Origin: a virus
Direction: 5' to 3' (one strand)
IMG/VR virus record: IMGVR_UViG_3300042566_000678
Span: 1-64,000 of that record
DNA length: 64,000 nucleotides
Part shown: one piece after another, positions 58,407-64,000 of the stretch
Layout: every line of letters starts with the position of its first letter
How positions within the stretch are numbered: the first letter of the stretch is position 1
Translations under genes and position numbers: made by a program
The notes under the pieces: generated by a model
The model's input: the letters and a program-made list of their open reading frames with translations, nothing else
What the model was told of the DNA's origin: nothing
Databases searched by the model: none

Positions 58407-58847
58407 TTAATCGAAAAATTCTACAATAATTCCGGCTTCTTTAAACATTTGATTGGAGCGTTCTGCTGACTCTTGCCACTTTGGACTCATTGCACCTTTA
58501 CCACTCCGTAGTACAATCTTCTCTACACCTGCTGATATAATTGCTCTTGCACAATCTGCACAACTAATACCACACGTCATATACATAGTAGTACCCAATG
58601 TGGATACACCGATACGAGCTGCGTTGTAAATACAATTTCGCTCTGCGTGTTCAAACCAAAAGTATTTCTCCGGCTTCTCTTGTCTTTCTACAACATCATC
58701 GTTTATACCACGAGGAAATGAGTTATAGCCGGTAGATACAATTTCATTGTTCTTACCAACTAACACCACACCAATCTTTGTATTATTATCTTTTGATTTC
58801 AACTTAACCTGTTCGGCGATGTTGATAAAGTATTCATCCCAATTCAT
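58407..58847 (-). CDS. dCMP deaminase
   Basis: WDEYF..A..V...SKD..TKIG, TGYN, HAERN, CADCA. Confidence 0.92.
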   Translation of the reverse strand: MNWDEYFINIAEQVKLKSKDNNTKIGVVLVGKNNEIVSTGYNSFPRGINDDVVERQEKPEKYFWFEHAERNCIYNAARIGVSTLGTTMYMTCGISCADCARAIISAGVEKIVLRSGKGAMSPKWQESAERSNQMFKEAGIIVEFFD

Positions 58848-59221
58848 TATCCTATAACTCTGTTTATATAACTTCTTAAAAATAAATAAAGTAAATCGTA
58901 GTGTCTAATTACTTCCATAGGAATAACTGTATCTTTTAATATGTTATACGATGGTTTACTATTTTCCCACAACTTTACATCCAATTTACACACATCTCTA
59001 TATCTACCCAGTTCATCTGGGTAATTTAGTATCTCTCTATTTAAATTAAAGCAACCATTATAAGTTGTATTATTTGTATTGTTTGTATAATCAAACGGAA
59101 TGGAATATACATCATCAAATGTAGATAGATTAAACATCTTAAACTCAAACAACTCGCTATTACTACCAAACTGACTTTTATCAATCAGTTTATCAATCTT
59201 ATCTATGTTTATTCTTTTCAT
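58847..59221 (-). CDS. hypothetical protein, possible distant MLTI-family member
   Basis: Similar layout: I.kidkl..., YSI.F, FNLNR, C-terminal amphipathic helix. Confidence 0.5.
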   Translation of the reverse strand: MKRINIDKIDKLIDKSQFGSNSELFEFKMFNLSTFDDVYSIPFDYTNNTNNTTYNGCFNLNREILNYPDELGRYRDVCKLDVKLWENSKPSYNILKDTVIPMEVIRHYDLLYLFLRSYINRVIG

Positions 59222-61155: not shown

Positions 61156-61189
61156 CAAAGGTAAGTAAAAAAATCCACATTTCCTAATT
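61156..61189 (-). promoter_or_regulatory. Bacteroidota-type promoter, copy 2 (33/34 nt identical to 58371-58404)
   Basis: Sense aattaggaaatgtggatttttttactTACCTTTG. Confidence 0.8.
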
Positions 61190-61190
61190 A

Positions 61191-61550
61191 TTAGTAATTT
61201 ATTTTATAACGAGGATGGGGTACTACAAATTGTTCTATAATATCACCGATACGAAGCATGAAATCACCAGCTGGTTTTCTCAACCAATTACGAGTAACCC
61301 AATGTTCGTATATGATATAGGAGTTTTTATTTAAGAATTGGAGTTTATAGGTCTTATCACCAAGCATCTCTTCATCATATCCTTTTCTATGTAATCTTAT
61401 TTTTAAAAATTGTTTACCTTTATCCTTATCTAAATATATGGAATAATAATCTTCTACTAAATCACTAGCATCAATTATTTCCCAACCATTAAAATCAGCG
61501 TTCTCACTAATTTCAGCCAATCTATCCATAAAGTTTTGTATGGTTAGCAT
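61191..61550 (-). CDS. MLTI-family paralog
   Basis: Starts MLTIQNF. Confidence 0.7.
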   Translation of the reverse strand: MLTIQNFMDRLAEISENADFNGWEIIDASDLVEDYYSIYLDKDKGKQFLKIRLHRKGYDEEMLGDKTYKLQFLNKNSYIIYEHWVTRNWLRKPAGDFMLRIGDIIEQFVVPHPRYKINY

Positions 61551-61813
61551 TATAGTAATTGGATTCCTTTTAATAACTCCGTAACTCCTTCTTCATTCAA
61601 ATATCCATGCACATCACCTTCGGCAACTGCATTATCATAATGTAATTCACCATCCGTATCCAACACTGCCAACTCATACAAACCATCCTTACCTCCGTAT
61701 GAATATTTATGACGTATCACACTTGCACCAAATCCGTTCTCAAACATAGTGCGAGAGTATATACCGCTCCCATCGGGTAACTCCTTAAACTCTAAATCTT
61801 TAAATTCTTTCAT
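61550..61813 (-). CDS. conserved phage hypothetical protein
   Basis: FENGFGASVI....SYGG..GLYELAVL motif. Confidence 0.75.
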   Translation of the reverse strand: MKEFKDLEFKELPDGSGIYSRTMFENGFGASVIRHKYSYGGKDGLYELAVLDTDGELHYDNAVAEGDVHGYLNEEGVTELLKGIQLL

Positions 61814-61935
61814 AATGTGTGTTTGTTGTTTTTAATTCTAAATATAATTTCTCTAATCAGCCAGCCGGGAAATACAATCATCCATATCAATACGATAGAT
61901 GATAGTAATAGTAAATTGTTAAAAAAATGTTTCAT
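61810..61935 (-). CDS. 41-aa single-TM protein (not in ORF track)
   Basis: MKHFFNNLLLLSSIVLIWMIVFPGWLIREIIFRIKNNKHTL; its stop overlaps the next ATG (ATGA). Confidence 0.55.
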   Translation of the reverse strand: MKHFFNNLLLLSSIVLIWMIVFPGWLIREIIFRIKNNKHTL

Positions 61936-61960
61936 AGTCGGTTTACGATTTTTTGATAGT

Positions 61961-62302
61961 TTAGTTATTCTGTAATTGGTAATCTAATGTATCTACTACG
62001 GATTGGATAAACGAATCTCTATCCTTTAATCCATTGGCACTTATCCCACCACTATCAAACTTCTTTTGATTTAAATAAATTATATACCTATATTGGTTCT
62101 TATAATCCTTATCAAACTCCCTACCAATAAGTATCTTACCTATGTTATTGCCTCCCAACTCAAATCCAATTGAATAGTATTCAGGTTCTAAAATGGTCAA
62201 ATCGGCATCATCGTATAAATGGACACCTTCGCTTACAAGATTAATCATCCACCCATTACAACGTATCCCTTCTAATGACCTAAAGTTTTTAATTGTTAGC
62301 AT
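61961..62302 (-). CDS. MLTI-family paralog
   Basis: Starts MLTIKNF. Confidence 0.7.
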   Translation of the reverse strand: MLTIKNFRSLEGIRCNGWMINLVSEGVHLYDDADLTILEPEYYSIGFELGGNNIGKILIGREFDKDYKNQYRYIIYLNQKKFDSGGISANGLKDRDSFIQSVVDTLDYQLQNN

Positions 62303-62303
62303 G

Positions 62304-62627
62304 TTATGTATGTTTATTAACTTGTTTATTAACTATTTTGCATAGAAATTCAATCATCATATTCATATCTTTAATGTAATCGGCATCTACACAAAATCCG
62401 ATTTTTTTATTTTCGTAATAAAAGAAGTATCTCCATTCACCATTACCCAATGATTCTAATCTTCTACTCAAATGAAATTCTTTTGTATCAATAATAGGTG
62501 AATATGCAGGATTCTTTAAATGTATTGCATATGTATCCGCTTTCTCTATGCAAAATTCTACTCCCCACCCTCCGGTAAAATCTAAAAACCTTCCTTCTAA
62601 TTTAGTGTAGTTTTGTATTGTTAGCAT
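62304..62627 (-). CDS. MLTI-family paralog
   Basis: Starts MLTIQNY; C-terminal DYIKDMN. Confidence 0.7.
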   Translation of the reverse strand: MLTIQNYTKLEGRFLDFTGGWGVEFCIEKADTYAIHLKNPAYSPIIDTKEFHLSRRLESLGNGEWRYFFYYENKKIGFCVDADYIKDMNMMIEFLCKIVNKQVNKHT

Positions 62628-62630
62628 ATC

Positions 62631-63107
62631 TTATTTTTTAATAACAAACCACTCCGTACTACCCCAATTACCACTATACCTATTATGGTATCTATTTCCA
62701 TCACGCCTCATTTCATCAAAATACCTAAACATTTTATTTTTGCTCAAAATCATTTTTTTAGTCCAACCATTAAAAATATCATTACCATATACTCGTTTAA
62801 GTAGTTTAGTAGTATCATCAAACTTTTTTGGAAATGGGAACTCATCATTAACTACATACCTATTCTTAAATGAATACCCACATATACCTTTTATGGACAA
62901 AACACATTTTTCTTCTTCTATTAGCATATCCGTAATAGATGCGTTTTTATCAAATAACTTAAAACTGACTATCTCCAAATTTTTGTAGTTGGGAAATTGC
63001 TTTAATCTTTTGTAAACGTTATAAGAATACCCAATTTTACATAGTTCGTATTTAGGAAACATTGAACCAAACTTTTTATCTCTAATATAATAAACACCAG
63101 TACTCAT
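62631..63107 (-). CDS. GIY-YIG superfamily (T5orf172/MUG113-like) putative nuclease
   Basis: GVYYI..KIGYS.N..KRLKQ..EE..and terminal TEWF. Confidence 0.7.
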   Translation of the reverse strand: MSTGVYYIRDKKFGSMFPKYELCKIGYSYNVYKRLKQFPNYKNLEIVSFKLFDKNASITDMLIEEEKCVLSIKGICGYSFKNRYVVNDEFPFPKKFDDTTKLLKRVYGNDIFNGWTKKMILSKNKMFRYFDEMRRDGNRYHNRYSGNWGSTEWFVIKK

Positions 63108-63136
63108 ATCTTATTGTAGTTTTCTATGGTTAGCAT
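63104..63136 (-). pseudogene. truncated MLTI-family head (MLTIENYNKI-stop)
   Basis: ATGCTAACCATAGAAAACTACAATAAGATATGA; its TGA overlaps the nuclease ATG. Confidence 0.75.
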
Positions 63137-63462
63137 AATTTTGGTAAAAGTCTAGATGAAATCCATTCTAATAAATGAATAGGGTCTTTTAAGTATTGAC
63201 AATGAATCCTATATCTTCTATTTGTTAATGATAGGCAATCTATTTGGTACTCAAATCCATTATCCATTAGCTGTCTCCATACCCATATATACTCAACCTT
63301 TTTTATGTTATATACTCTATTACCTTCATCTGGCATCAACGAAAGTTTATAGAACTCTGGTTGCTCATCTATGGATGCAACTATCCATTTGGTTATTCCA
63401 CCCGGTGAAAACGATTGGGTTTCCATACCCCTTATCTTATCGTAGTTTTTTATGGTTAGCAT
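63130..63462 (-). CDS. MLTI-family paralog
   Basis: Starts MLTIKNYDKI. Confidence 0.7.
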   Translation of the reverse strand: MLTIKNYDKIRGMETQSFSPGGITKWIVASIDEQPEFYKLSLMPDEGNRVYNIKKVEYIWVWRQLMDNGFEYQIDCLSLTNRRYRIHCQYLKDPIHLLEWISSRLLPKLC

Positions 63463-63463
63463 A

Positions 63464-63808
63464 TTACTTATATTCTTCCATAGTTTTAAGCATAAGTGAA
63501 TAGAAATCCACTTTCTTTTTTAGTAGGATTCTTCCAACTTTAGTTTCAACTACAAACCCATCTCTATTTGTACCCGGCGTTGCCAGTTTAGTATCGTAAA
63601 GTCGTAAACGATATATGGATTGTTGGTAACTCGCCGGTACTCTATCCAAAAGAAACTTAAAACGTCGGGGTATCCCATAGGCATTCCAATAGAATGAATA
63701 ATACTCTCCATCACCATTTGGTTTTACAGAAGATAACCCGCCATCGCATAATGTGTACTCACCTATGGTCAGACCTATATCTTTTCTTACGTTTTGTATT
63801 GTTAGCAT
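63464..63808 (-). CDS. MLTI-family paralog
   Basis: Starts MLTIQNV. Confidence 0.7.
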   Translation of the reverse strand: MLTIQNVRKDIGLTIGEYTLCDGGLSSVKPNGDGEYYSFYWNAYGIPRRFKFLLDRVPASYQQSIYRLRLYDTKLATPGTNRDGFVVETKVGRILLKKKVDFYSLMLKTMEEYK

Positions 63809-63809
63809 A

Positions 63810-64000
63810 TTAAAAATGAAAAGTAAATTTGTCTAATGCTTTTAGTAGATTGTTCATATCTGCTATATAATCTATGGTTACACTTTGGTTGGTAGCTTTG
63901 CGAGATTCATCGTAGAATCTATATACAAACCTATCACCAATGTGTAAGGTCTTCTTTCTTTGTAGATAAACCTTTATAGATGATAAATGTTTGTGTTCTA
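63810..64000 (-). CDS. probable further MLTI-family paralog, 3' part only
   Basis: Manual translation ..VYLQRK..YRFYDE..VTIDYIADMNNLLKALDKFTFHF; DYI.DMN is shared with 62304-62627. Confidence 0.55.
   Translation of the reverse strand, partial: EHKHLSSIKVYLQRKKTLHIGDRFVYRFYDESRKATNQSVTIDYIADMNNLLKALDKFTFHF

Follow-up and report, generated by a model that had tools for sequence, protein, structure and literature searches.

Gene heads as probable sites of cassette turnover in a tandem array of small phage paralogs

The first 64,000 nt of the virus record IMGVR_UViG_3300042566_000678 (the window, that is, the whole stretch of DNA analysed) end in a tandem array of small paralogous genes at positions 61191-64000, all on the minus strand. 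The member genes start with a common "head" that encodes the peptide MLTIxN. In this study, we believe that the array is part of a variable block of small genes, that its carrier is a large T4-like lake phage of Bacteroidota, and that the array encodes a family of small cytoplasmic proteins of about 100-130 amino acids (aa), whose heads are constrained as peptides and whose gene cassettes turn over at the heads. We put the probability of this joint explanation at about 0.6. The near-identical direct repeat of 18-30 nt at each gene start is the site of whole-cassette loss, gain and reordering, and the same repeat is the place where a GIY-YIG-like gene sits.

The array and its protein family

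The full record (G000) is 148,235 bp long and is estimated to be 80% complete. It encodes a portal, a large terminase, a baseplate wedge and an RNA ligase 1, which indicates a large myovirus-type phage, and the sequencing runs that hold the phage are mostly lake and other freshwater metagenomes, the lakes being covered by 11 studies. Five open reading frames (ORFs) of 119, 113, 107, 110 and 114 aa (starts 61550, 62302, 62627, 63462 and 63808) match the head pattern ATGCTAACNATNNAAAAC exactly at their starts, and so does a 10-codon stub at 63136, as an original prediction made from the sequence had described. With up to two mismatches allowed, ATGCTAACNATNNAAAAC matched 7 times against 0.58 expected, and 7 matches were reached in 0 of 100 shuffles. 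The partial member suspected at the window edge proved to be a complete 98-aa gene (member B), whose head is ATGCTAAAGATACAAAAT (MLKIQN). The gene order in G000 is A B C D [stub, 158-aa gene] E F (41-aa ORF, 87-aa gene) G.

Scanning the record for copies with a profile hidden Markov model (HMM) gave 12 firm and 3 weak paralogs, all within 58.8-77.8 kb. Members past the window edge start at 64497, 69725, 70307, 70681, 76552 and 76890; the one at 70307 is a 179-aa protein with an N-terminal extension. The weak candidates, from a broader profile, start at 69369, 77762 and 59221. Weak matches of the family HMM to an RNA ligase and an AAA_33 kinase (E 0.002-0.9) were judged to be spurious.

A profile of the 12 members found 128 proteins in 90% clusters and 165 representatives in a 50% library. 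The family therefore comprises at least 165 clusters in metagenomes, all unnamed; almost all of the proteins are 95-120 aa long and nearly all start with MLTIxN. Among 137 sequences, L2 (132), I4 (136), N6 (133), Y37 (135), R56 (134) and Y66 (126) were the conserved positions, and K9, [LI]10, G12, W18 and L54 were strongly kept. At the N terminus, the motif M-L-T-I-x-N-[YIF]-x-K-[LI]-x-G hardly varies; pairwise identity was 65% over residues 1-7 and 19% over the remainder. The common body pattern that the prediction had read from five genes was thus recovered across the family as W18, Y37, L54, R56, Y66 and a C-terminal helix.

The prediction had also reported a paralog family that it did not recognise, and the searches showed that this family is real and previously unnamed. 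A Pfam-A scan of the 137 members gave three isolated single-member matches only (best E 0.0022), and a PHROGs v4 scan gave one isolated match. PADLOC had no match to members, PDB sequences had none at E up to 10, tblastn of a member against 50,697 cultured-phage records had none, and the ESM Atlas gave no usable match.

A common fold was found by AlphaFold in both modelled members, E (predicted local distance difference test, pLDDT, 88.1) and C (pLDDT 91.3, from a deeper alignment). In both models, the N-terminal tail is extended and leads to a one-turn helix (residues 7-10), which is followed by an antiparallel meander of five strands and by a long C-terminal helix. The first ten residues in the model of C have a pLDDT of 93. 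Deduced from strand order alone and not from coordinates, Y37, R56 and Y66 lie at one end of three adjacent strands and probably form one conserved pole with the tail. Foldseek searches of PDB and BFVD with both models returned nothing at E < 0.05. Type III secretion chaperone-like and RWD-UBC-like sandwiches recur in the VIA-align lists of both models (Z 4.4-6.8; root-mean-square deviation 2.8-4.6 over 75-99 residues), which is within the stated noise range.

The ratio of nonsynonymous to synonymous substitution rates (dN/dS), calculated against a close variant contig (L019) from small counts, was 0.33 for D, 0.56 for E, 0.16 for F and 0.29 for G, and 0.04 for the 87-aa neighbour. Values of 0.16-0.56 indicate that the genes are maintained. 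The members are under purifying selection, looser than that on the neighbour, and gene-wide positive selection was not seen, in contrast to the diversifying family of the original prediction.

Cassette turnover at the heads

The contig L019 is 91-95% identical to G000, and two units that each run exactly from head to head set them apart. One is cassette C, which L019 lacks; B is joined there at its end to the head of D within ATGC-AAC. The other is the stub with the 158-aa gene (a unit of 509 nt), which L019 lacks as well; D is joined there at its end to the head of E within ATGCTAAC. Both indel junctions lie inside ATGCTAAC. The allele without the 158-aa gene was found in three contigs from three samples (L019, L020 and L021) and as a loose end in run X6, and the depth over this gene falls several-fold in runs X5 and X6. 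The variant contigs were assembled with long k-mers (their names begin with k141), so a false join from an 18-34-nt repeat would not be expected. The original prediction read the head as a recombination or translation-coupling handle; of this, the alleles support the point that cassettes gained or lost between close variants have breakpoints within the head.

Syntenic arrays were found on contigs of 205-275 kb, between a gene whose product starts with MKAPQNF and genes for a phosphoesterase, a kinase and an RNA ligase. Clustering of the ORFs of eight loci gave eight arrangements with 3 to 11 members, for example H A B E C D I F (87-aa gene) G J in L014 and B E D A in L013. Neither order nor content is fixed, as the cassette array that had been proposed would require. 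The 87-aa gene was retained between F and G in five compared loci, G000 among them. Identity was mosaic: A is 80% identical to its counterpart in L014; F shares 71% identity with that of L010 but 41% with that of L014, and for the 87-aa gene the two values are 94% and 63%. The flanking enzymes are 53-74% identical to relatives. Orthologues of G show 36-40% identity in L010 and L014 and 90% in L019, and D is 92% identical to its orthologue in L019. DNA homology blocks open with a head and extend 17-30 nt into the one that follows; their neighbours differ by phage. An 81%-identical block shared with L010 runs exactly from the head of F to about 30 nt into G. The block of E opens with the head of E and stops 17 nt inside the following one, the neighbours differing in each relative. 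A search for related loci with a single member as query returned two loci.

The heads could also be alike through concerted evolution (gene conversion) or recent duplication, with selection acting on neither peptide nor DNA. Recombination at heads does occur, and the stub copies the head of D at 28 of 30 positions. However, the heads in one genome differ synonymously (ACA/ACC/ACG, ATA/ATT, AAC/AAT), the same peptide is found across 165 clusters in many phages, and the bodies are saturated at about 19% identity, so that the duplication is old. We regard this explanation as very improbable, and selection on the head peptide is preferred.

The 158-aa gene differs in its slot between phages. In G000 it lies between D and E; its neighbours in L026 are the MKAPQNF gene and E, and those in L024 are B and another member. 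In all three slots it stands directly 5' of a head, with 1-3 nt between its stop and that head. In G000, the stub is fused at ATAAGATA to the start of this gene. All four homologues give consistent matches, below threshold, to MUG113 (15-20 bits, cut-off 22.3) and T5orf172 (15-17 bits, cut-off 20), which both belong to the GIY-YIG clan; no cultured-phage relative was found. T-even phages carry the free-standing homing endonuclease genes seg and mob, of the GIY-YIG and HNH classes. Like these, the 158-aa gene is intergenic, variably present in near-identical genomes and found in different places in relatives. Unlike these, it always abuts a head of the family, and two heads flank it in G000. 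Its constant position at heads suggests movement via the repeated head and not to one fixed target. From its sequence and placement, it behaves as a putative free-standing homing endonuclease gene, which may use the heads as flanking homology.

Another gene of this kind, resembling an HNH plus helix-turn-helix endonuclease, lies at L009:4564-5013 (genome 68564-69013, as 69013-68564) and adjoins the members at 69725 and 69369. Its homologue in L013, 59% identical, is also found among members.

In T4-type phages, small genes of hyperplastic regions are shuffled by PeSL recombination (Arbiol et al. 2010, PMC2839356; Comeau et al. 2014, PMC4122927). The genomic behaviour of the array is closest to that of these regions. 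Both consist of small non-essential genes, early in T4-type phages and probably early here, whose content varies between close relatives and which recombine at short repeats, and a 35-nt promoter-like repeat brackets the present block. As with PeSL, the junctions of indels and replacements lie inside a repeated element, here the coding heads (cassette C, the stub with the 158-aa gene, and the block borders). Unlike PeSL, which is an intergenic promoter plus a stem-loop terminator, the junction repeat here consists of coding sequence, the initial 18-30 bases of each gene, which a conserved peptide keeps alike. The array has no stem-loop terminator, and 61191-64000 no terminator-like hairpin. 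In addition, the shuffled genes are paralogs of one family and not unrelated ORFans.

Genomic accordions are known from large eukaryotic DNA viruses, such as the multigene families (MGF) of African swine fever virus and the amplification of K3L in poxviruses. The array resembles them in its tandem diverged paralogs, its variable region and a copy number that differs between strains. The viruses, hosts and proteins differ, and here no link to a host-range phenotype is known.

Three further changes were seen within the arrays. At window positions 61814-61945, contigs of runs X3 and X4 have the 41-aa ORF swapped for 39 unrelated bases, with no head used. In L026 (3294-3755), a 153-aa ORF consists of a duplicated head (MLTIH), a 34-residue Cys-rich segment and a complete F-type member in frame. 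The insert is 117 nt long and zinc-ribbon-like (CxxC...CxxC), the F-type member starts at its own ATGCTAAC, and this is the second case of an insert flanked by two heads. The head of D in L019 (178-200) is ATGCAAACC (MQTIQN), a rare loss of Leu2, located at the head where cassette C is missing.

Peptide and DNA constraint on the head

The codons of the head were compared with those of the body and with genome codon usage in 45 members from four phages (G000, L010, L013 and L014). Synonymous codons in the head vary: Thr3 is ACA, ACC, ACG or ACT, Ile4 is ATA, ATT or ATC, and Asn6 is AAC or AAT, with moderate enrichment of ACA, ATA and AAC. The peptide is kept when it is shifted by one residue (MKLTI, MTLTI) or lies inside fusions of 155-207 aa. 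This indicates that the "DNA head" mainly mirrors, in its coding sequence, a constraint on the protein, and that its synonymous sites drift. The view that the head is conserved as DNA for its own sake was not supported, since the synonymous sites of Thr3, Ile4 and Asn6 vary and the one frozen codon is otherwise explained.

That codon is Leu2. Of the 33 members with Leu right after ATG, 29 use CTA for it, and the share of CTA elsewhere is 13-16%. Where another residue separates the two, as in MKLTI, TTA and CTA are equally common (TTA in 5 of 10). The string ATG-TTA-ACN contains GTTAAC, which is found once in 148 kb against 31.5 expected. This palindrome is avoided too in L010, L014 and L016, but not in L013 (3 against 4.9 expected), which is the sole phage with an ATG-TTA-ACA head, the head being one of its GTTAAC sites. 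At base 6, the genes of G000 have A in 60% and G in 9%, which disfavours TTG. CTA at Leu2 thus fits avoidance of the purged GTTAAC, which TTA, the usual codon, would make, together with the preference for A at base 6. As CTA is the sole A-ending Leu codon that avoids GTTAAC, we read the DNA head as the image of the peptide plus ordinary codon constraints.

Two other causes of CTA were considered. A frame-B stop within ATGCTAA was rejected, because TTA-A and TTG-A would give a stop as well. A constraint on CTA supply is unlikely, as the phage encodes both tRNA-Leu(TAG) and tRNA-Leu(TAA). These belong to a block of 14 tRNA genes at L030:138-4668 (genome about 143.1-147.7 kb), which also includes Asn(GTT), Ile(GAT) and Lys(TTT). 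The block can read most head codons (CTA, ATT/ATC, AAC/AAT and AAA) and is without a Thr tRNA or an ATA-reading Ile tRNA.

Other palindromes are purged from G000 as well. GATATC, CTATAG, GAATTC and TACGTA are absent against 12-53 expected, GGTACC, GTTAAC and CTTAAG occur once each against 25-32 expected, and GATC is apparently wholly absent. The purged sets partly differ among relatives; L010, L013 and L014 keep GATATC and GAATTC.

The packing of the genes was compared at 45 junctions. The spacings between a member and its upstream gene included +1 (8), +3 (6), -7 (5), -1 (4) and -14 (3). At the -7 overlaps, the upstream stop is the TAA within ATGCTAA, and D ends in this way at 63130, as had been noted for that position. 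In total, 8 of the 45 upstream genes have their stop inside the head, five with an overlap of 7 nt and three with one of 14 nt. The non-member genes of the phage are packed just as tightly. Since the packing is generic and so few upstream stops lie in heads, there is no specific case for a translation-coupling device, and this part of the original prediction is not retained.

These data also bear on whether the head is selected as nucleic acid, as a recombination handle, a re-initiation or coupling signal or another mRNA signal, with the peptide secondary. The predominance of CTA and the mild excess of AAC, ACA and ATA would fit such selection, as would an A/C-rich head with no G after ATG, the indel junctions inside heads and the upstream stops inside them. 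However, GTTAAC avoidance and A at base 6 account for CTA, every Thr codon and two or three of the Ile and Asn codons occur in the head, and packing is as tight among non-members. The peptide persists when displaced from ATG or internal in fusions, and it is modelled with confidence as part of the fold. We consider selection on the nucleic acid unlikely.

The head peptide might also be a capsid-targeting tag, through which variable bodies are packed into the phage head and injected as anti-restriction proteins. The internal proteins IPI-IPIII and Alt of T4 carry a capsid-targeting sequence on diverse bodies in variable loci and are described as defence-countering (PMC3012670). The MLTIxN family is similar in having a conserved N-terminal sequence of about 10 residues on diverse small proteins in variable loci. 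Unlike the T4 proteins, it has no protease site (no conserved [LI]-x-E cleavage site follows the tag), its tag is part of the predicted fold and also internal in fusions, and its bodies are mutually homologous. Their location in the genome and the kind of promoter suggest early genes: the members lie among small genes behind host-type promoter-like repeats, outside the head cluster, whose ORFs bear a different leader, MIKLKxLLxE. A targeting tag is thus improbable, and we keep to a peptide constrained as part of the folded protein.

An N-degron, with an exposed Leu2 and a phage ClpS as in L010, was dropped because G000 has no ClpS match. The 205-275-kb relatives (L010:17489-20315, L011) have a ClpS-like gene and a TonB-dependent receptor gene of about 1080 aa at the end of the locus.

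Proposed mechanism and neighbouring features

We propose that homologous or microhomology recombination between heads would drive the accordion of the array, and that the mobile gene may use the heads as portable flanking homology. The block would plausibly be transcribed early from host-type promoters, as judged from motifs. The consensus of the Bacteroidota -7 box is TAnnTTTG, and copies of the 35-nt repeat with such a box, at about 64887, 61168 and 58383, bracket the main array and are also found in relatives as short multi-copy matches; no candidate late box was found at 60-75 kb. The proteins may be early host-directed binders or inhibitors with one conserved pole (the tail plus Tyr/Arg/Tyr) and other surfaces that vary; an anti-defence or host-interaction role had been proposed in the original prediction. 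Variable blocks of small early genes hold host-takeover and counter-defence tools of phages, and their content is mostly unnamed.

Several points weigh against this reading. The junction without cassette C rests on one metagenome contig of 1975 nt, and junctions at gene starts could partly come from selection for intact genes and not from recombination. The nuclease assignment of the 158-aa gene comes from Pfam scores under the curated cut-offs. The best VIA-align scores of both models against all representatives (Z 6.1-6.8) are at noise level. CTA is preferred over the permitted TTG and CTT beyond the composition of base 6, and an extra RNA-level constraint on the head may account for this residual preference. 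The promoter reading of the 35-nt repeat is plausible by motif only, and no RNA run was found among the sequencing runs that hold the stretch.

A bolder form of the proposal is held tentatively, with the odds somewhat against it. The first 6-7 codons would be the coding counterpart of PeSL, a peptide-constrained repeat of 18-30 nt permitting deletion, duplication, reordering and exchange between phages of exact units, a GIY-YIG-like selfish gene that had taken over this repeat as flanking homology could enter any slot, and the whole would act as an accordion of early host-directed inhibitors with one docking pole. If head repeats drive turnover, the PeSL idea extends from regulatory cassettes to coding sequence. 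The natural alleles give before and after states of unit-wise gain and loss at a repeat inside coding sequence. The new family is large and clearly delimited: it has at least 165 clusters, and the main array holds 3-11 copies and one genome up to 15. Its structural models are confident, and its sharply conserved site lends itself to mutation. The Leu2 codon is a worked example in which a seemingly frozen codon is explained by restriction-site avoidance and not by a hidden signal.

The features of the locus are collected in Table 1.

Table 1. Features of the MLTIxN locus in G000, listed by position
Feature	Position	Strand	Basis or remark
Weak outlying candidate, 124 aa, MKRINIDKIDKL; not among firm members	58847..59221	-	Broad HMM E 0.003, residues 4-122
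Promoter-like repeat, 35 nt, Bacteroidota-type -7 box (TAccTTTG)	61156..61190	-	Motif only; other copies ~64887, 58383
Member G, 119 aa, MLTIQNFMDRLA; last gene of main array	61191..61550	-	HMM E 1e-27
Non-member gene within array, 87 aa, phrog_4074 (function unknown)	61550..61813	-	phrog_4074 E 1.3e-12
Hydrophobic ORF, 41 aa; variably present between variants	61810..61935	-	ORF list
Member F, 113 aa, MLTIKNFRSLEG	61961..62302	-	HMM E 4e-28
Member E, 107 aa, MLTIQNYTKLEG; first AlphaFold model	62304..62627	-	pLDDT 88.1, predicted template modelling score (pTM) 0.79
GIY-YIG-like (T5orf172/MUG113) gene, 158 aa; putative mobile homing endonuclease	62631..63107	-	Sub-threshold Pfam matches
Head stub, 10 codons, MLTIENYNKI-stop	63104..63136	-	Alignment: 28/30 copy of head of D
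Member D, 110 aa, MLTIKNYDKIRG	63130..63462	-	Stop is TAA within next ATGCTAA
Member C, 114 aa, MLTIQNVRKDIG; second AlphaFold model; whole cassette absent from L019	63464..63808	-	pLDDT 91.3
Member B, 98 aa, MLKIQNYYLLCD; window part (63810..64000) is its 3' two thirds	64106-63810	-	HMM E 1.6e-31

The MKAPQNF gene belongs to a second paralog family of about 108-115 aa, whose members start with MKAPQNF or MKAPINF and always lie directly upstream of the MLTIxN array. Kinship between the two families was undetectable (hhalign probability 5%). Members of the second family lie at L009:501-848 (genome 64501-64848), L010:8404-9058 and L014:5015-5671, and tandem duplicates occur in some relatives.

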